Source: an uncultured delta proteobacterium (GTDB lineage: Bacteria; Desulfobacterota; Binatia; DP-6). Taken from it: a stretch of DNA of 64,000 nt. The translations under genes and the position numbers were made by a program. Below are positions 1 to 8,570 of this stretch, piece after piece. The notes beneath the pieces are model-generated. The model saw only the letters and a program-made list of their open reading frames with translations. It was not told where the DNA came from and made no database searches. Where the stretch lies: the NCBI GenBank assembly GCA_963815115.1, contig CAWFFN010000005.1:768001-832000 (forward strand), in the 5' to 3' direction. Every line of letters begins with the position of its first letter. The first letter of the stretch is position 1.

Positions 1-890
1 TTCGGGCCGTCGGGACAGAGGAGCGCCGCGAGCGCCTGGAGCTGCCGGCGACCCACGCCGACCTCGAACATGCCGCCGAGGTAGACCGCGATCCCGCGGG
101 ACCGGCAGGCCGCCGCCGCCGCCAGCATCTCGAATATCCCGCCCATGCGCGCCGGCTTGAGGTTCGCGGCCACCGGCCGCACGGGCAGCCGGTGGACGTC
201 GTCGGCAGTGGAGAGGGGAGAGTCCGCGGCGAGCCGGCGCTGCAGATCGCCCGACCACGGCGCCAGGTCCCAGCACGGGTCCTCGACCAGCGCGTCCGGG
301 AGGATGCGGTGCGCACGCTCGTGGTCGGCGCGCGTGCCGGCGTTCTTCCAGTCGAGTACGGCGATCCGGCCCGACGCGGCGAGGGCGGCGAGGGTGGCAT
401 CGTCCCACGCCGGGTCGGCGTCGACCTTGAGCTCCACGTTGCCGTGACGGCGCGCCTCGGCGGCGGGGTCGGCGACGCGCCCGAAGGACACGACGTAGCG
501 CACCGGCCGGGGCGCATGACCGGCGATCTCGAACAGGCTCACGCCGTGCTGGCGCAGCGCCAGATCGATGGCCGCCGCCTCGAGCGCTGCCCGGTCGTAG
601 GGTTCTGCGATCGAGTCCGCGATGGCGGCGCTCCACGCGTCCAGCCGCCACGTGCCGCGCGGCACGCGGGGCGCGGTCCGGTCACGGAAGGCGCCGTGCT
701 CGGCCTCGGTCCAGCCGACGTGCTCGCTCCGTCCCGCAGCCCCGTTGCCTCGCAGCGTCAGCCGCGAGCTCGGACGTGGACCGTCGGGATAGGACGGCAC
801 GTCCACGGCGCCGACCTCGACGCTCACCTGCTCGATGGTCACCGCGAGCGCGCGGAGCGCGGTGCGCAGCGCCTCAGGCGTCGCGAGCAC
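1..890 (-). CDS. Enolase-superfamily (MLE/OSBS-like TIM barrel) protein; 3' end runs off the window
   Basis: Not in the ORF track because it has no stop in the window. Translated by hand from GTG 890: MLATPEALRTALRALAVTIE...ALEAAAIDLALRQ...ELKVD...VLDWK...VEDP...AADSP...NLKPARMGG...YLGGMFEVGVGRRQLQALA. Shows the enolase-type acidic metal ligands and catalytic Lys; overlaps the stop of the upstream fusion gene. Confidence 0.75.
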   Translation of the reverse strand, partial: MLATPEALRTALRALAVTIEQVSVEVGAVDVPSYPDGPRPSSRLTLRGNGAAGRSEHVGWTEAEHGAFRDRTAPRVPRGTWRLDAWSAAIADSIAEPYDRAALEAAAIDLALRQHGVSLFEIAGHAPRPVRYVVSFGRVADPAAEARRHGNVELKVDADPAWDDATLAALAASGRIAVLDWKNAGTRADHERAHRILPDALVEDPCWDLAPWSGDLQRRLAADSPLSTADDVHRLPVRPVAANLKPARMGGIFEMLAAAAACRSRGIAVYLGGMFEVGVGRRQLQALAALLCPDGP

Positions 891-3156
891 AGCGGAAGCC
901 GGCGAAGAGCTGGCGGCGCTGCGGCAGGTCCCAGTTGCGGAAGGTATTGCGGGCGACCAGGGGCTGCGTCGCCCACGATCCGCCACGCAGCACCTTGTAA
1001 CCCTTGCCGAAGTGGACCTCGGAGTACTCGGCATAGGGGAAGGCGACGAAGCCCGGATAGGCCGCCAGGTCGCTCGCCGTCCACTCCCACACGTCGCCGA
1101 GGAGCTGGTGGCAGCCGAAGTAGCTCGCGCCCTGCGGGTAGGCGCCGACGGCGGCGGGCGAGAACGTGCGCTGGTCGAGGTTCGCAAGCTCGGGCGTCGG
1201 TGGCGAATCGCCCCAAGGGTAGCGTCTCGGCGTGCCACGTTCCAGGTCCCAGGCCGCCGCCTTCTCCCACTCCGCCTCGCTGGGCAGCCGCTTGCCGATC
1301 CAGCGCGCGTACGCGTCGGCCTCGTACCAGCAGACATGGATCACCGGCTGGTCGAGCGCGAGCGGCACGAGCCGGCCGAAGGCACGCTCGTGCCAGGTTC
1401 CGTCGCTCGCCTGCCACCACTGCGCCGGATGTCTGACGCCCGCGTCGAGCAGCCAGCGCCAGCCGGCCTCCGTCCACAGCTCCCGCCGCCGGTAGCCGCC
1501 GTCCTCCATGAAACGCAGGAAGTCGCCGTTGACGGTGGGGCAGCGGTCGATCCGGAAGCGCGGCACGAAGACCTCGTGCGCCGGCCGCTCGTTGTCGTAG
1601 GCGAAGCGGCGATCGTCGGTTCCCATCAGGAATGCCCCGGCCGGAACGACGACCTCGGCGGCGGCGAGAGGACCGAACGATTCGGGAGGGTCGCAGCGGC
1701 GCGGCAGCTCGTAGACGAGGTCGTCGATGAGCTGGATCGTCTGCAGGATGGTCTCGGTGTGCTGCGCTTCGTGCTGCGCCAGCATCGCGTGCACGAAGCC
1801 ACCGGCGAGCAGCGGGGCGGTGGCGGGGAAGGTCGCGCGCGCCAGCACGGCGAACGTCCGCCGCCGCGTCTCGTCGAAGTATCGTACGCAGTAGGCGCGC
1901 TGCAGCAACGGCAGGCGGGCACGGGTGGCGCGCGGATGGGCGACGGCGTCGTACAGGTGATCGCGCCGCCGGTCCTCGTCGTCGCGGCGGCCCTCGGGAT
2001 CGTGGGCGCGCCGGATCCACTGCTCCTCGAAGTTCGCGATGTGGCCGAGGTCCCAGACGATCGGGCTCATGAGGGTGCTGTGCTGCCGGGTGAGCTGCTC
2101 CTCGGTGAGCGGGGCGACCAGCTCGAGCGTGCGGGCACGCGCTCGCCCGAGCAGGCGCTCGGCCACGAGGCGCGTCGAGGGCGGGGGAGGGGCGGGGCGC
2201 CGGCGCAGCAGGAGCAGCGCGAACGCCTGCGCGGGATCGGTGATGGTCTCGACCGCTTCGAAGCCGTGGCGCGCGGCCGCGGCGGTCATCTCCGGAATCC
2301 GGAACTTGCGGCTCACCTCGGTGAGCACCATCTCGCCGGCCGCGAGGCGGAACGAGCGGTCGAGCTCGGGAAGCTCGATGACCGCCGGGCGGGTGAAGCG
2401 GGCGAAGATGTCGATGCGCTCGCGGCTCTCGTTCCAGTAGGCGACGTGCTCGATGGCGTCGAGATCGAGGCGCGTGCCGAGGTCGCGATTCATGCGGGCG
2501 AAGAGGTTGCGGGTGAAGGCCGCGCTCACCCCGGCCGCGTCGTTGTAGGCCGCTTCGAGGACGGCCGGATCCTTCACCAGGTCGAGGCCGAGGAGCAGGT
2601 GATCGCCGGCCGACAGGCCGTCGGTGACGCGCTCGAGGAACGCGGCGGTCTCGGTGCGGTCGAAGTTGCCGAGGCTGCTGCCGAGGAAGAGCAGCACCAG
2701 GGGCGAGAACTCGCGCAGCCGGGCGAAGGCCTGCTCGTAGGTGCCGGCGAGGGCGCGTACCCGCAGGCTGGGGAAGTCGCCTTCCAGCGTCCGGCACGAG
2801 GCGTCCAGCATGTCGCGGCTGATGTCGACCGGAACGTAGCGCGCTCGCTGGCCGCCGGCGGTCCAGGCGCGCAGCAGGTGGCGCGTCTTGGTCGAGCTGC
2901 CGGAGCCCAGCTCGACGAGGGTCGGCGCTCCCGCGCGCGCGCGCAGCCGGGAAGCGTGCGCGGCGAGCAGCGCATCCTCGGTCCGGGTGAGATAGTATTC
3001 CGGCTGGCGGGTGATGTCCTCGAACAGCCCGCTGCCCTCGGCATCGTACAGGTAGCGGCAGGAGAGCCAGCGCGGCGAGTCGCCCAGACCGCGCGCGATC
3101 GACTGCGCGAACGCCGCGCGGGCCAGCGCGCGGGTACCCAGCTCGTCGCGTGTCAT
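874..3156 (-). CDS. egtD-egtB: EgtD-EgtB fusion: histidine N-alpha-methyltransferase plus non-heme iron sulfoxide synthase (DinB + FGE-like domains)
   Basis: N-half: YLYDAEGSGLFEDITRQPEYYLTRTE, VELGSGSSTKT, FLGSSLGNF, AAYNDAAG, TEVSRKF. C-half: WDLGHIANFEEQW, QHEAQHTE (HxxxHxE), RLPSEAEWEKAA, GDVWEWT, VLRGGSW, RNTFRNWDLPQRRQLFAGFRCA. ATG 3156 overlaps the HIT stop (ATGA). Confidence 0.92.
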   Translation of the reverse strand: MTRDELGTRALARAAFAQSIARGLGDSPRWLSCRYLYDAEGSGLFEDITRQPEYYLTRTEDALLAAHASRLRARAGAPTLVELGSGSSTKTRHLLRAWTAGGQRARYVPVDISRDMLDASCRTLEGDFPSLRVRALAGTYEQAFARLREFSPLVLLFLGSSLGNFDRTETAAFLERVTDGLSAGDHLLLGLDLVKDPAVLEAAYNDAAGVSAAFTRNLFARMNRDLGTRLDLDAIEHVAYWNESRERIDIFARFTRPAVIELPELDRSFRLAAGEMVLTEVSRKFRIPEMTAAAARHGFEAVETITDPAQAFALLLLRRRPAPPPPSTRLVAERLLGRARARTLELVAPLTEEQLTRQHSTLMSPIVWDLGHIANFEEQWIRRAHDPEGRRDDEDRRRDHLYDAVAHPRATRARLPLLQRAYCVRYFDETRRRTFAVLARATFPATAPLLAGGFVHAMLAQHEAQHTETILQTIQLIDDLVYELPRRCDPPESFGPLAAAEVVVPAGAFLMGTDDRRFAYDNERPAHEVFVPRFRIDRCPTVNGDFLRFMEDGGYRRRELWTEAGWRWLLDAGVRHPAQWWQASDGTWHERAFGRLVPLALDQPVIHVCWYEADAYARWIGKRLPSEAEWEKAAAWDLERGTPRRYPWGDSPPTPELANLDQRTFSPAAVGAYPQGASYFGCHQLLGDVWEWTASDLAAYPGFVAFPYAEYSEVHFGKGYKVLRGGSWATQPLVARNTFRNWDLPQRRQLFAGFRCARDA

Positions 3157-3569
3157 GCCGTGGTCGCCTTCCGGATCGCCGCGCCCACGTCCGCCAGCGT
3201 GCGCGACGTGCGTCGAGGGAAGATCGTGTGGATGGTTCCGGCGCCGTCGCCCGGCCATCGCGGCACGATGTGAACGTGAACGTGGGGGACCGTCTGGCCG
3301 GTGGCCTCGCCGTTGTTGATGCCGATCGTGGTGCCGGCCGCGCCCACCGCGAGGCGCACGGGATCGGCGAGCCGGCGCACGAGGCGGAAGAGACCGTCGG
3401 CCGCCGCCGGCTCCAGCGCCTCGATGGTGGGCACATGCGCCGTCGGCACCACGAGCGTGTGGCCATCGGCGAGAGGCTCGAGGTCGAGAAAGGCGACGCC
3501 GTCGGGTGCGCGGGCCACCACCTCGGCGGGTATCTCACCGGCGACGATGCGACAGAAGACGCACGTCAT
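3153..3569 (-). CDS. HIT family nucleotide hydrolase
   Basis: CVFCRIVAGEIP...GHTLVVP...GQTVPHVHVHIVPR (HxHxH triad); SD-like GGGAG upstream of ATG 3569. Confidence 0.92.
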   Translation of the reverse strand: MTCVFCRIVAGEIPAEVVARAPDGVAFLDLEPLADGHTLVVPTAHVPTIEALEPAAADGLFRLVRRLADPVRLAVGAAGTTIGINNGEATGQTVPHVHVHIVPRWPGDGAGTIHTIFPRRTSRTLADVGAAIRKATTA

Positions 3570-3687
3570 CTCCCGGCCTCCTCGTGGCGCGGGTACGCCC
3601 GGCCGCCCCTCGGGGCCAACGCGGCTCGCCTCACCGCGCCGCATCCTGCCAGGTATGGCAAACAAGGGAAGCCCCCTCGGAAGCTGG

Positions 3688-4299
3688 TCAGAGGACTGCG
3701 TCGAGCAACGTTCGCGTGGCCGCGCCAGGGTTTCCGGCCGAGAGAATGGCGCGGATCACGGCGATGCCCCACGCGCCCGCCGCCCGCAGCTCGGGGACGC
3801 TGGCGGCCGTGACTCCGCCGATGGCGAGGACGGGAATGCGCGCTGCCGCCACCGCGCCGCGCAGGCGCGCGGCGCCCTGCGGCGGGCCGAAGGACGTCTT
3901 CGACGGCGTGGCATGGACGGGGCCGAAGAACGCGAAGTCGGCCGTGGCGGCGGCGACCTCCGCCGCCGCGTGCGTCGAGATGCCGATCAGTGCGCCGGCC
4001 GGCAGCAGGCTGCGGACCACGTCCACCGGCATCGACCCGCCGCCGAGGTGCACGCCGTCGGCGCCGGCGGCGAGGGCGACGTCGACGCGGTCGTTCACCA
4101 GCAGCAGCGCGCCCGTACCGGCCGTCAGGGCGCGCAGCCGCTCGGCGAGTACGAGGAGAGGCCGCCCGGGCAGATCCCTTTCCCGAAGCTGCACGGCGGG
4201 CAGCCCGGCGTCGAGCGCCGCCGCGACGACGTCGCACAGGTCGCGCCCGCCGGTGGCATGGCGGTCGGTGACCAGCACGAGCTTCGGTGGCGCCGCCAT
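3688..4299 (-). CDS. thiE: Thiamine-phosphate synthase (ThiE/TenI family)
   Basis: LVLVTDR, VQLRERD, LLVNDRVDVALA, GVHLG, GISTH, FGPVHATPSK, VLAIGG. Confidence 0.85.
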   Translation of the reverse strand: MAAPPKLVLVTDRHATGGRDLCDVVAAALDAGLPAVQLRERDLPGRPLLVLAERLRALTAGTGALLLVNDRVDVALAAGADGVHLGGGSMPVDVVRSLLPAGALIGISTHAAAEVAAATADFAFFGPVHATPSKTSFGPPQGAARLRGAVAAARIPVLAIGGVTAASVPELRAAGAWGIAVIRAILSAGNPGAATRTLLDAVL

Positions 4300-4309
4300 C
4301 GCACGCACT

Positions 4310-5830
4310 CTAGCGCAGCCCATGGGGCGGGTCAGTTGCCGGGCGGCGCGTGCTCCCGTCCGCGATCGCGGCGCGGAACGGCTCGAGCTGGGGGTCGCCG
4401 GTCCGCTCCATGTGCGCCAGCAGCAGCCCTGCGAGGTGCTCGACGTCATGGCGATAGGCAGGCGCGTCGATCACGTTGTGACGCTCGTCCGGGTCGCGTT
4501 CCAGGTCGTAGAGGGCGAGGACGGTGCCGAAGACGTACTGCCGGACGCGCGCGGCGACCGCGGCGTCGTGGCGCGCCGCCGCGGCGAGTGCAGGGAACGT
4601 CAGCCCGTTCATCGCCTCCACCCGGAACCGCCTCCGGCCGTCCGCCCACGGCTCGAAGATCAGCGAGCGCGTGTTCGTGCGCACGCAGCGCTGCGGAAAG
4701 GCCGCGCCGCTGCGCACCGTGTTCACGTGGGTGACGACGTGGTCGCGTCCGTCCTGCGTTTCCCCGCGCAGCAGCGGGCCCCAGGAGCGGCCGTCCATGC
4801 CCGCCGGTGGGGCGACCTCGAGCAGCCCCAGGAGCGTCGGCATCAGGTCCACGCTGCTCACCATCGCCTCGTGCGACGCCGCCGGCGGCATGGCGGGATA
4901 GCGCAGGACCACCGGCGACCAGGTGCCGTCGCGATAGACGGTGGCCTTGGCGAACGGGACCGACATGCCGTTGTCGGAGAGGAACACGACCACCGTGTCG
5001 CCGACGTGCCCCGCGGCATCGAGCGCGTCGAGCACCGCGCCGAGGCTCCGGTCCATGCGGGCGACGTTCGCATAGTAGCGCGTGAGCTCCCGGCGGACGG
5101 GCGGCAGGTCTTCCAGGACGCCGGGCACGAGGCCGGGGCCGGCCCGCAGCGCCCAGGCGTGGACCGCGGCCCGCTCGAAACGTCCGCCGACGCCCGACGG
5201 CCATCGGTCCAGATCGCTGCCGAGGAAGGGGCGATGCGGGTCGGTGATGTTGGCGTCGACGAAGAAGGGACGGCCGGCGCGACGCGCTTCGTCGAGGCAG
5301 CGCGTGACGGCCGCGCCGATCCGGGACGGTCGGCGTCCGGAGCCGCGCAGGGCGAGGTCCCACGGGAACTTCGCAGGGGGGCGCATGTGCGACAGCTTGT
5401 TGATCGCGGCCGTGAAGTAGCCCCGTGCCTGCAGGACCTCGACCAGGGTCGGAACGTCGCGGGCGACGGGGCCGAACCCGAGCGCGCCGTTGCGGTGCGG
5501 CACGCGCCCGGTCAGCAGCGCCGCGCGCGACGGCGCGCAGATGGACGCGGTGAGGTGGGCGTTGACGAAGCGATGCGAGGAGCGGGCCAGCGCATCGAGG
5601 CGCGGCGTCGCCGGCATGAGGCTTCCCATCCACCCCGCCGAGTCGGCGTTGAGGTCGTCGGCGGTGATCAGGAGGAGGTTCGGGCGCCGTGGCAGCGGCT
5701 GCTGGGCGGCGGCGGCCGGAGCGCCGCGCGCCGGGCCGGCGCCCGCGACGCTCCACGCGAGCAGCACGGAGAGTCGCGTCGCCCGCAGCAGACCGCCGCA
5801 CGCTGCGCCGCGGGCCGTCCTCGCCACCAT
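4310..5830 (-). CDS. Secreted formylglycine-dependent sulfatase (sulfamidase-like)
   Basis: RPNLLLITADDL, CAPSRAALLTGR (CxPxR), FLSDNG, LYDLERDPDE; N-terminal signal-like segment. Confidence 0.9.
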   Translation of the reverse strand: MVARTARGAACGGLLRATRLSVLLAWSVAGAGPARGAPAAAAQQPLPRRPNLLLITADDLNADSAGWMGSLMPATPRLDALARSSHRFVNAHLTASICAPSRAALLTGRVPHRNGALGFGPVARDVPTLVEVLQARGYFTAAINKLSHMRPPAKFPWDLALRGSGRRPSRIGAAVTRCLDEARRAGRPFFVDANITDPHRPFLGSDLDRWPSGVGGRFERAAVHAWALRAGPGLVPGVLEDLPPVRRELTRYYANVARMDRSLGAVLDALDAAGHVGDTVVVFLSDNGMSVPFAKATVYRDGTWSPVVLRYPAMPPAASHEAMVSSVDLMPTLLGLLEVAPPAGMDGRSWGPLLRGETQDGRDHVVTHVNTVRSGAAFPQRCVRTNTRSLIFEPWADGRRRFRVEAMNGLTFPALAAAARHDAAVAARVRQYVFGTVLALYDLERDPDERHNVIDAPAYRHDVEHLAGLLLAHMERTGDPQLEPFRAAIADGSTRRPATDPPHGLR

Positions 5831-6017: not shown

Positions 6018-6758
6018 TCAGCGCAGGTGGCGGCCGCCGTCGGCCCGGATGGTCTCACCGGTGATGAAGTCGTTCTCGATGAGAGCCAGCACGGCGTGGG
6101 CGATCGCTTCCTCGCCGCCCCACCGCCCGAGCGGTGTCTCGCGCTCGACCGCGCGCCGCTCCTCGGTGCCGAGCTCGGGGGGAGCGAGGATCGGCCCGGG
6201 GGCGACGGCATTCACCAGGATCTGGTCGCCCGCCAGCTCGAGCGCGAGCGCTTCCGTCAGACCCACCACGGCCGCCTTGGCGACGTAGTACGGCAGGTAG
6301 CCCGGATAGCGAGGCCGGCCGCTGCGCGACAGCCAGTCGGCGAAGAGCACGATGCGCCCTCCGCCTGCGGCCCGCATGTGGGGAGCAGCCGCCCGCGCGC
6401 ACAGGAACGCCGCCCGCGCGTCGACCGCCAGGCTGTCGTCCCAGTCGCGCTCGGTGAGCGCGTCGAACGGGGTCTTGGCGTAGCGCGACGCCATGTGGAC
6501 CAGGACGTCGAGGCGCCCGAGCGTCTCGACGACGTGGGCCACGAGTGCGTCGCACTCGGCTGCCTTGGTCAGATCGGCCGCGAACGCCGTCGCCCGCCGT
6601 CCGAGCGCCCGCACCGCGTCGGCCGCGCGCTCGACGTCCTCGCGCGAGCGATTGTAGGAGAAGGCGAGGTCGGCACCGCGGGTCGCGAGCGCCAGCGCGA
6701 CGCCGCCGCCCACGCGCTTCGCGCCGGTGATGAGGACGGTCTTGCCGGTGAGGTCCAT
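6018..6758 (-). CDS. SDR oxidoreductase (pteridine reductase/FolM-like)
   Basis: VLITGAKRVG Rossmann variant, YYVAK (YxxxK), VNAVAPG, ITGETIRADGG. Confidence 0.85.
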   Translation of the reverse strand: MDLTGKTVLITGAKRVGGGVALALATRGADLAFSYNRSREDVERAADAVRALGRRATAFAADLTKAAECDALVAHVVETLGRLDVLVHMASRYAKTPFDALTERDWDDSLAVDARAAFLCARAAAPHMRAAGGGRIVLFADWLSRSGRPRYPGYLPYYVAKAAVVGLTEALALELAGDQILVNAVAPGPILAPPELGTEERRAVERETPLGRWGGEEAIAHAVLALIENDFITGETIRADGGRHLR

Positions 6759-6948
6759 GGTTGAGAACGCGTCGAGTCCGAGCCGTAGGCATTGTCGCAT
6801 GCCGGCGCTCGCGCGACCACCGGGTCGTGCCGTGCCGCGAGCGCGGGTGATTTCCGTTCCGATCTGCACAGCGTCGACCGCCAGCTCTTCGCCTGATCTC
6901 CGCGGCGGGCGCGGCGCTGCGGGGGAGATGGCTCCCCGGAAAGGTACC

Positions 6949-7004: not shown

Positions 7005-8570
7005 GTGCTCGAGATCGCCTTCCGGCCGGATCGCGCCAGCGAGGTGCCCATGGCGCGGCAGCTGGCCGACCACGTGGCGACGCTGGTCACGAGCGGACGC
7101 CTGCTCGGGGGCTCCAGGCTGCCGGCGTCGCGCGAAGCCGCGATCGCGCTCGGCGTCTCGCGCAAGACCGTGAGCGCGGCGTACCAGCAGCTCGCCGCTC
7201 GCGGGCTGACCGCTGCGCATGTGGGGCAGGGCACGTTCGTGCTGCTCGGCACCCCGCCGCCTGCCGCCGCACCGCGCGCAGCCGCCGCTCGCACGCCCCG
7301 CGAGTTCGCGTGGGACGGCCTCCTGGCGCGGGTGCCGCCGGTGCCGCTCAGCCTCCGCCGGGCCGAGCGCGGCGGCCCCTCTCCCTACGACTTCCGCGGC
7401 GGCCGGATCGAGGCCTCGGCGCTGCCGCTGGCCGACCTGCGCTGGGCCATGGGGCACGCGTTCCGATCCCGGGCGGGGCTCCAGGCGCTCGCGTCACACC
7501 ACGATCCCGCCGGCTGGCCGCCGTTGCGGCGCGAGATCGCGCGCCTCCTCGTCCGGCGCGGCATCTCGTGCGACGCTCGCGAGGTCGCGGTGGTGAACGG
7601 CCTCCAGCACGCCATCGACCTCGCGGCCCGGGTGCTGGTCGAGCCCGGCGACGCCGTGGTCATGGAGCAACCCGGGTACTTCGGAGCCGCCCTGGCCTTC
7701 GCGGCCCGGGGAGCCGACGTGCTCGGCGTCGACGTCGATGGCGAGGGCCTGCGCACCGACCGTCTCGCGCGCGTCCTGCGGCTCCGGCGCGTCAAGCTGG
7801 TGTACGTCACGCCGGCGACCCAGAGCCCGACCGGCGCGATGATGAGCCCGGCGCGTCGCGAGGCCCTCCTCGCCCTGGCCGACGAGCATCAGGTGCCGAT
7901 CCTCGAGGACGACTACGACAACGAGCTGCGCTACGCGGGTCCGGTCCAGCCGGCGCTCAAGGCGACCGATCCCGCCGGTCAGATCGTCCACGCCGGCACC
8001 TTCTCCAAGGTGCTGTTCCCGGGGCTGCGCGTGGGCTACGTCGTGGCGCCGCGCGTGCTGCTCGAGCGCCTGGTCGCGGCGCGTGCGGCGAGTGACTTCG
8101 GCAGCGGCGTCGTGCAGCAGGCGGCGCTGGCCAGCCTGCTCGCTACCGGCGCTCTCGACCGCCACCTGCAGCGCGCGCGGCGGCTCTATGGCCGGCGGAT
8201 GGCTGCCCTGCTCGCCGCCCTGGGTCGCGAGATGCCGGCGGGCGCGCGCTGGACCGAGCCGCGCAGCGGACATCTGGTCTGGCTCACGCTCCCGTCCGGT
8301 GTCGATGGGGATCGCGTGCATCAGGCGGCCCTCGCGCTCGGTGTCGCCTACACGCGCGGCGAGGTCTTCTTCGCCGACGGCCGTGGCGGCGAGCACATCG
8401 CCCTGGCCTGCGCCGCGGTCGACGAGGCGACCATCGCCAAGGGCGTCGCGCGGCTGGCGCGCGCGATCCGCGAGGTGGCGTCGAGCGGTCACCCGGCTGG
8501 TGTTCGGCGGCCGGCCGCGGGCGAGCGGCTGGCGAGAAGGAGGAGCGATGGCACGCAGCGAGCGGGGTGA
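7005..8570 (+). CDS. MocR/GabR family PLP-dependent transcriptional regulator
   Basis: N-terminal GntR wHTH (RLPASREAAIALGVSRKTV...GQGTFV) plus class I aminotransferase domain (ILEDDYD, GTFSKVLFPGLRVGY). Confidence 0.93.
   Translation: MLEIAFRPDRASEVPMARQLADHVATLVTSGRLLGGSRLPASREAAIALGVSRKTVSAAYQQLAARGLTAAHVGQGTFVLLGTPPPAAAPRAAAARTPREFAWDGLLARVPPVPLSLRRAERGGPSPYDFRGGRIEASALPLADLRWAMGHAFRSRAGLQALASHHDPAGWPPLRREIARLLVRRGISCDAREVAVVNGLQHAIDLAARVLVEPGDAVVMEQPGYFGAALAFAARGADVLGVDVDGEGLRTDRLARVLRLRRVKLVYVTPATQSPTGAMMSPARREALLALADEHQVPILEDDYDNELRYAGPVQPALKATDPAGQIVHAGTFSKVLFPGLRVGYVVAPRVLLERLVAARAASDFGSGVVQQAALASLLATGALDRHLQRARRLYGRRMAALLAALGREMPAGARWTEPRSGHLVWLTLPSGVDGDRVHQAALALGVAYTRGEVFFADGRGGEHIALACAAVDEATIAKGVARLARAIREVASSGHPAGVRRPAAGERLARRRSDGTQRAG

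Follow-up and report, generated by a model that had tools for sequence, protein, structure and literature searches.

The genes described here lie at the start of a 64,000-nucleotide stretch of DNA (the window; positions 768,001 to 832,000 of contig CAWFFN010000005.1, GenBank assembly GCA_963815115.1) from an uncultured delta proteobacterium of the lineage Desulfobacterota, Binatia, DP-6. In the numbering used throughout, the window is G000:C5:768001-832000, where G000 stands for the source genome and C5 for the contig. The source genome amounts to 6.89 Mb on 12 contigs (completeness 100%, contamination 2.98%), and G+C content is about 70-76% over the first 12 kb of the window. The gene of central interest, referred to as ENL, belongs to the enolase superfamily (probably Pfam class DUF8230) and follows a gene encoding a fusion of the ergothioneine enzymes EgtD and EgtB. 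An earlier note on this DNA had described three overlapping genes on the minus strand, and these stand as it placed them: a HIT-family (histidine triad) gene of 138 aa at 3153..3569, the EgtD-EgtB fusion gene of 760 aa at 874..3156, and ENL at 1..890, defined by translation, profile and AlphaFold2 model, of which the window holds the first 296 of 326 codons. ENL encodes 326 aa at full length and ends beyond the window at G000:C5:767910. The 15 kb before position 1 (locus L004) confirm the linked operon and show it to be larger than noted, with three ATP-binding cassette (ABC) transporter genes in the same operon: an ATPase gene (C5:767173-767913; ABC_tran, 119.7 bits), a permease gene that starts 5 nt after it (C5:766559-767167; BPD_transp_1, 75.1 bits), and an OpuAC-family binding-protein gene that overlaps the permease stop (C5:765717-766562; OpuAC, 185.5 bits).

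The genes are packed closely. Stop and start codons share an ATGA both between the HIT gene and the fusion (3156-3153) and between ENL and the ATPase gene, and the GTG start of ENL at 890 sits 17 nt within the fusion, whose TGA occupies 876-874; the first and last of these overlaps had already been pointed out. Overlaps of this kind indicate translational coupling. ENL could also start at an in-frame GTG at 842, but the start at 890 is supported because ENL homologues begin at the same residue (alignment A1, 20 homologues). Judged from its sequence, the cluster is a compact six-gene ergothioneine-type operon in the order HIT, EgtD-EgtB fusion, ENL, ABC ATPase, permease and binding protein.

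Both halves of the fusion score above the cut-offs of their NCBIfam equivalogs. The EgtD half reaches 318.5 bits on TIGR03438 (cut-off 290.9), with residues 16-316 spanning model positions 2-300 of 301, and 332.1 bits on Pfam Methyltransf_33, which places the domain at residues 16-318 (2203..3111, minus strand); solved EgtD chains are matched at E 2e-67. Family assignment shows it as an S-adenosylmethionine (SAM)-dependent histidine N-alpha-methyltransferase, predicted to trimethylate histidine to hercynine. The EgtB half (883..2151, minus strand) consists of a DinB_2 region (residues 336-470, 62.1 bits) and an FGE-sulfatase-like region (residues 499-758, 211.2 bits), reaches 393.8 bits on TIGR03440 (cut-off 360), and by the same kind of assignment is a predicted non-haem-iron sulfoxide synthase. 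On the selenoneine synthase model SenA (NF041186) the fusion falls short of the cut-off, at 353.7 bits against 420, and it carries Asp where SenA has Phe397. No second EgtB is encoded in the source genome.

The closest solved chain to the EgtB domain is that of M. thermoresistibile EgtB (4x8b, 358.8 bits), a type I enzyme, whereas type II EgtB scores about 185 bits. His372, His462 and His466 align to the iron histidines of the M. thermoresistibile enzyme and Tyr708 to its catalytic tyrosine (which we take to be His51, His134, His138 and Tyr377), and all four are invariant in 20 fusions. Ser364, Asp369, Arg409, Arg412, Asp743 and Arg747 of the fusion correspond to Ser43, Asp48, Arg87, Arg90, Asp416 and Arg420, positions associated with gamma-glutamylcysteine (gamma-Glu-Cys) contact, Arg87 presumably among them; all six are invariant or nearly so across the 20 fusions, and Asp743 and Arg747 are invariant. 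According to PMC11237966, gamma-Glu-Cys is held at its glutamyl end by Asp416 and at its cysteinyl end by Arg90, Asp48 and Ser43, and Arg420 is a conserved neighbour with a different side-chain position in SenA. The mycobacterial-type EgtB tail remarked on in the earlier note is upheld, with Asp416 and Arg420 equivalents in 27 of 28 ENL-linked EgtB sequences, the single exception having a frameshifted tail. The source genome also encodes a plant-type glutamate-cysteine ligase (GshA, 474.9 bits against 463.15), which is the same gene as its EgtA-like match, and a GshB (371 bits against 299); with GshA above its cut-off, gamma-Glu-Cys should be available in this organism.

The assignment of ENL to the enolase superfamily, proposed earlier from the translation, is upheld by profile and structural comparison. 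The ENL sequence alone is below threshold on Pfam MR_MLE_C (26.5 against 29.4). A profile built from the 20 homologues of alignment A1 matches chains of N-acylamino-acid racemases, N-succinylamino-acid racemase/o-succinylbenzoate synthase (NSAR/OSBS) and dipeptide epimerases at E 8e-17 to 1e-13, the best being 2zc8 (E 8.4e-17) and 1sja (E 2.4e-16). The AlphaFold model of ENL (pLDDT 96.0, pTM 0.93) has the capping domain and TIM-like barrel of the muconate lactonizing enzyme (MLE) subgroup, and matches structures of that subgroup with a Foldseek probability of 1.00 and at Z 29-30 (rmsd 2.5-3.0 over about 305 residues), a level at which many families tie. The NSAR/OSBS equivalog TIGR01928 is not reached by ENL (44.2 bits against 200.65). 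A full-library search gave 939 relatives at E ≤0.001 and 85 at ≤1e-30. Of the ENL homologues, all 120 among the matches listed in a separate comparison carry PF26684 and PF26685 (DUF8230_N and DUF8230_C, Pfam 38.1) in precomputed annotation, and the Atlas clusters nearest to ENL are DUF8230, with scores of 0.96-0.98.

The active site of ENL differs from that of its solved relatives at one catalytic position. Residues were mapped by counting along the profile alignment to 1sja, the Amycolatopsis NSAR/OSBS. All three acidic metal ligands, located where strands 3, 4 and 5 end, are kept, as Asp180 (Asp189 of 1sja), Glu203 (Glu214) and Asp223 (Asp239), as are the strand-6 lysine, Lys245 (Lys263), and Arg248 (Arg266). 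On strand 2 the Lys-x-Lys motif of the MLE subgroup is not found, and the sequence reads Lys155-x-Asp157, with Lys155 at the position of Lys161 and Asp157 at that of Lys163. This catalytic signature, including the strand-2 Asp, is present in at least 105 of 108 full-length family representatives. In NSAR and Ala-Glu epimerase, L-configured substrates are deprotonated by the strand-6 lysine. With one base instead of two, ENL appears better suited to being an eliminase than a racemase.

The association of ENL with EgtB extends well beyond the window. A scan of one genome per species gave 80 loci, and linkage was counted by tblastn in the 29 closest (L022-L050), in which ENL is 39-74% identical to that of the window and which come from metagenome-assembled genomes (MAGs) labelled Binatia, delta proteobacterium, Myxococcales, Haliangiales, Gemmatimonadota, Thermodesulfobacteriota, or plain bacterium. 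In 27 of these loci the gene that immediately precedes ENL, in the same orientation, is EgtB; L044, with 186 nt of sequence before ENL, is too short to assess, and L038 is the one true exception. Wherever EgtD, EgtB and ENL occur together, EgtD and EgtB form a single open frame (23/23 loci), and the distance from the fusion stop to the start of the ENL alignment ranges from -129 to +129 nt. Pairwise identities of fusion and ENL are correlated across these loci (r = 0.87, 253 pairs), which are themselves kin. In the phylum of the Gemmatimonadota-labelled genome ENL is rare (3/201). Two public gene calls, P0174 (1068 aa) and P0172 (627 aa), join the C-terminal part of EgtB to ENL; genuine fusion or read-through across the overlapping genes could account for them, and they are not counted here as fusions.

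A survey of 301 genomes of the window's class, with EgtB called at E ≤1e-60, gives the same picture (genomes G183, G087, G207 and G212 enter only its denominators). ENL is present in 39 genomes, namely 20 of 24 in family f1, 14 of 20 in f7, 4 of 13 in f4, and the source genome itself, and EgtB is present in 192. All 39 ENL genomes have EgtB, 153 have EgtB only, 109 have neither, and no genome carries ENL in the absence of EgtB; within f1 and f7 every genome has either both genes or neither. The co-occurrence that the earlier note proposed as a check is thus found at the level of both locus and genome. EgtB adjoins ENL in every one of the 39 and its frames there are mostly 740-1150 aa (539 aa in G186, where the frame is cut by a contig end), compared with mostly about 410-650 aa in genomes without ENL.

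Kin share gene order, and adjacency could in principle be inherited synteny without shared function, or ENL an inactive relic. Some MAG copies are in fact damaged: the ENL match is in two pieces in L047 and G120, the second G120 piece lying in a frame that contains a stop, and a single stop lies inside the ENL-matching open frame of G088, G128, G093, G192 and G174. These split or stop-bearing copies could be decay or assembly error. Both readings are nonetheless very improbable when the linkage covers MAGs labelled from several phyla at the identities given above, the catalytic residues are invariant, and the gene overlaps are retained.

The second strand of evidence is the distribution of EgtC. 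An EgtC above cut-off is found in 50 of the 301 genomes (45 in family f8, two in f18, and one each in f20, f13 and f6), and adjoins EgtB where this was checked (G118, and by coordinates G078, G110 and G216). It is found in none of the 39 ENL genomes, nor in five more distant ENL genomes whose completeness is not established. In the source genome the best match to EgtC (TIGR03442) is 25.9 bits against 218.65, that to EgtE (TIGR04343) 71.6 against 400, and that to EgtA 152.1 against 370.8, so that the absence of egtA, egtC and egtE first remarked for the window holds for the whole genome. The prediction that ENL genomes lack both egtC and egtE is accordingly sustained for EgtC; for EgtE the absence is uninformative. 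At E 1e-40 the EgtE model, which is without a positive control, matched nothing in the 301 genomes or in the controls and cannot separate ENL genomes from others, and because the EgtC-carrying relatives likewise lack EgtE, its absence is not specific to the ENL system. Plant-type GshA is likewise non-discriminating, being present in 290 of 301 class genomes and in 36 of the 39 with ENL (G018, which is 100% complete, G072 and G214 lack it). An EgtC-containing locus from another family of the class, L102 (G118:C1:2617000-2635000), encodes an uncharacterised 428-aa protein, EgtC, EgtB, EgtD, an asparaginase-like protein and a transporter of the major facilitator superfamily; in the EgtB of this locus, the positions of the glutamyl-binding Asp416 and the neighbouring Arg420 are taken by Tyr and Val.

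Ergothioneine is a widely studied antioxidant and fermentation product. The known aerobic routes to it end in a pyridoxal 5'-phosphate (PLP) lyase, to which the mycobacterial route adds an amidohydrolase. A conserved, unstudied enzyme that stands in place of EgtC and EgtE and excludes EgtC is a testable candidate for a shorter route. In the mechanism proposed here, the EgtB domain would couple hercynine to gamma-Glu-Cys, like the mycobacterial type I enzyme. In the resulting sulfoxide adduct, an N-acylated amino acid, the C-terminal carboxylate would be free, which gives it the same form as the substrates of NSAR and the dipeptide epimerases. ENL, acting with Mg2+, would bind the N-acylated cysteinyl residue to the metal through its carboxylate, and Lys245, its sole remaining catalytic lysine, would take the cysteinyl alpha-proton; beta-elimination would then expel the sulfenate, the products being ergothioneine sulfenic acid and gamma-glutamyl-dehydroalanine, and cellular thiols would reduce the former to ergothioneine. 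Loss of the opposite base would, on this proposal, be what turns a racemase into an eliminase. If the elimination occurs, ENL does the work of EgtC and EgtE without PLP.

That ENL is a PLP-independent beta-eliminase acting on the gamma-Glu-Cys sulfoxide adduct is a tentative reading, with a chance that we put not far short of even. The broader proposal, that the Egt-linked branch of DUF8230 comprises new metal-dependent, PLP-free C-S lyases that take the adduct straight to ergothioneine sulfenic acid, and that the fusion and ENL would suffice to make ergothioneine from histidine, SAM, O2 and gamma-Glu-Cys, is put forward with more reserve, as possible at appreciably less than an even chance. 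The lyase role of ENL is best described as a well-motivated hypothesis, and the interpretation offered in the earlier note is to that extent partly supported. If true, it would represent a new reaction for the enolase superfamily and a first function for the domain of unknown function DUF8230, and would help to explain how the pathway is completed in the many bacteria whose only egt genes are egtB and egtD.

Several observations weigh against this reading, and they are taken here together with the alternatives on which they bear. The first concerns the Asp/Arg pair of the fused EgtB. In family f8 of the window's own class, EgtB linked to EgtC has Tyr and Val at the Asp416 and Arg420 positions, which indicates that the pair is dispensable for use of gamma-Glu-Cys and a weak predictor of it; in stand-alone EgtBs these positions hold Phe and Ser or Ala. 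As a sign of gamma-Glu-Cys use the pair is suggestive, not decisive. ENL might then be a C-S lyase of narrower scope, with the fused EgtB using free cysteine and ENL cleaving hercynylcysteine sulfoxide, so that it would replace EgtE only and EgtC would not be needed. The order of EgtD followed by EgtB matches the order that we take fungal Egt1, which uses cysteine, to have, and EgtC and ENL are both absent from about 100 of the EgtB genomes in the class. This alternative is nevertheless unlikely, given that the six type I contacts are so strongly conserved in the fusions, that the EgtB domain scores far higher on type I than on type II EgtB, and that the nearest relatives of ENL use N-acylated amino acids or dipeptides, not free amino acids.

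A second group of observations concerns the chemistry of ENL. In OSBS the strand-2 lysine is, we assume, the base for elimination, and it is this position that is Asp in ENL. Moreover, the Lys-x-Asp signature is shared by a sister DUF8230 subfamily (distinguished by Asp57, Tyr190 and Gln274 in ENL numbering) that has EgtB or EgtD beside it in 0 of 80 loci (L106-L185, metagenome contigs), so the signature did not evolve for an Egt substrate alone. In a quick tree with Agromyces NSAR/OSBS as outgroup, all 23 Egt-linked ENLs fall on one side of a branch (approximate likelihood ratio test, aLRT, 86), together with 20 representatives whose context is not established, and the sister group falls on the other (aLRT 92); true NSAR/OSBS genes such as that of Agromyces are not beside egt genes. 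The neighbours of the sister subfamily vary, with the exonuclease VII large subunit as the upstream neighbour in 4 of 12 inspected loci, and the subfamily was dropped as a functional clue.

The closest solved relatives of ENL are racemases and epimerases, which raises the alternative that ENL is a tailoring enzyme, such as an alpha-carbon epimerase of hercynine, ergothioneine or the adduct, in an operon that makes a modified thiohistidine betaine. The structures 4h2h and 2pmq, presumably hydroxyproline-betaine epimerase, match the ENL model at Z 27.3-27.4. That bacteria build further on thiohistidines is shown in PMC13674229 (2026). The second lysine required for two-base racemisation is, however, Asp in 105 of 108 members of the family, and a tailoring role leaves the exclusion of EgtC unexplained; it is on balance improbable.

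A third group of observations concerns the evidence from gene content. ENL and EgtC occur in different families of the class, and their exclusion is for that reason partly a matter of descent. EgtC-like matches below cut-off are present in 3 of the 39 ENL genomes, at 199.6 bits in G054, at 189.9 bits in G192, about 8 kb from ENL, and at 126.2 bits, with a stop inside, in G120. The source genome also encodes a gamma-glutamyltranspeptidase (439.1 bits against 357.85) and several proteins of the class-V aminotransferase fold, which could carry out the EgtC and EgtE steps. Finally, L038 retains ENL and the transporter without EgtDB, and has DUF748 and BON genes upstream of ENL.

These last two points lead to a further alternative, in which the pathway is completed by general enzymes, namely a gamma-glutamyltranspeptidase and a PLP lyase, and ENL serves the transporter side of the operon, where it might convert an imported betaine or a by-product. 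Of the 29 loci, 17 have a transporter behind ENL in the same orientation, one has it in the opposite orientation and 10 lack it, the remaining contig being too short to tell. The ATGA shared by ENL and the ATPase gene fits such a role, as does the precedent of betaine epimerases encoded beside betaine ABC transporters, and two yeast studies (PMC9502471 and PMC7437059) are said, in their titles, to find that one or two Egt genes suffice. The binding protein is closest to OpuBC, OpuCC and ProX chains (142-174 bits, with EgtU binding domains at about 120 bits), and the proV subfamily score is 260.6 bits (cut-off 326.6); the likely cargo is a quaternary-ammonium compound, for instance hercynine or ergothioneine. 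The 10 loci that keep EgtDB and ENL without a nearby transporter, when the reverse occurs in only one, and the finding that ENL is never in a genome without EgtB (0/39), argue for a tie to EgtDB, and a transporter-side role is decidedly unlikely.

The HIT gene has a less certain place in the system. Its product scores 83.5 bits on PF01230 (cut-off 21.5), with the histidine triad H-V-H-V-H-I-V readable in the translation, and no NCBIfam subfamily cut-off is reached. The earlier note had included it in the operon, but it is not a constant partner, lying upstream in 10 of the 23 loci holding EgtD, EgtB and ENL. The pairing of a ThiE-like gene with HIT recurs in eight related loci (L023-L026, L029, L030, L032 and L047), and this synteny suggests that HIT is a lineage-specific neighbour and not a member of the pathway. 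In the window the ThiE-like gene (TMP-TENI, 182.2 bits) occupies 3688-4449 on the minus strand, upstream of HIT. Between the two, a consensus scan places a terminator-like hairpin at 3670..3685 (minus strand) that may be the upstream boundary of the operon; with three sites in the 7-kb stretch scanned against 0.9 expected, this is weak evidence.

Further genes surround the operon. A sulfatase-family gene (4310-5830, minus strand), a short-chain dehydrogenase gene (6018-6869, minus strand) and a gene for a GntR regulator fused to an aminotransferase domain (7005-8570, plus strand) have no visible operon link. On the other side, a 78-codon frame with hydrophobic stretches directly follows the binding-protein gene (L004 12484-12720, minus strand), and no match to it was found in related loci. 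Two kilobases past the operon lies a gene for a 447-aa protein with two RidA/L-PSP-type stretches (G000:C5:762356-763699; L004 9356-10699, minus strand). The RidA-like protein as an enamine deaminase of the pathway, and a NosD-like gene downstream of the operon as a pathway member, were both considered and rejected, as neither gene is conserved in related loci.

With regard to the literature, a search of one library of papers found none joining ergothioneine or EgtB to enolase-superfamily enzymes, o-succinylbenzoate synthase or DUF8230. The 2026 survey PMC13674229 lists in its section 7 and Table 1 the genes beside EgtB-type sulfoxide/selenoxide synthases (NHISSs) as EgtD in 69.9%, EgtC in 15.2%, an OpuBA-type ATPase in 13.6% and EgtE in 6.2%, with no enolase-like family among them, although rarer families may appear in its supplements. 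On the transport side, the OpuAC-family binding protein recalls the EgtUV importer and the OpuB/OpuC betaine systems. Unlike EgtUV, the ATPase, permease and binding protein are here three genes, and the likeness is one of family level; determinants specific for ergothioneine are named in PMC9732360.

Among the biosynthetic systems, the mycobacterial EgtA-E pathway with its type I EgtB (4x8b/4x8d) shares the EgtD and EgtB chemistry predicted for the fusion, down to the iron histidines, the tyrosine and the gamma-Glu-Cys contacts. It differs in that EgtD and EgtB are here one polypeptide, that EgtA, EgtC and EgtE are missing from the genome, and that an enolase-superfamily gene lies downstream. 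Fungal Egt1, with its PLP lyase partner Egt2, resembles the system in domain order and in the shortness of the gene set; the EgtB half of the fusion is, however, bacterial type I by sequence, with no fungal chain among its matches, and its partner is not a PLP enzyme.

For ENL itself, the nearest comparison is with NSAR/OSBS (1sja and the N-acylamino-acid racemases of Thermus and Deinococcus) and the dipeptide epimerases, with which it shares the fold, the metal ligands, the strand-6 Lys, the equivalent of Arg266 and a GGM-x-E strand. These enzymes deprotonate N-acylated amino acids or dipeptides at the alpha-carbon of the C-terminal residue, and the gamma-Glu-Cys adduct would be of that form. 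ENL departs from them in having Lys-x-Asp in place of Lys-x-Lys on strand 2, in scoring far below the TIGR01928 cut-off, and in its probable Pfam class, DUF8230. With the PLP C-S lyases EgtE and Egt2, ENL has in common neither fold nor cofactor, and its proposed substrate keeps the gamma-glutamyl group. A sulfenic acid intermediate is reportedly named for EgtE in the title of one study (PMC4493562). What would unite ENL with these lyases is the proposed net reaction, a beta-elimination that frees 2-sulfenylated hercynine.

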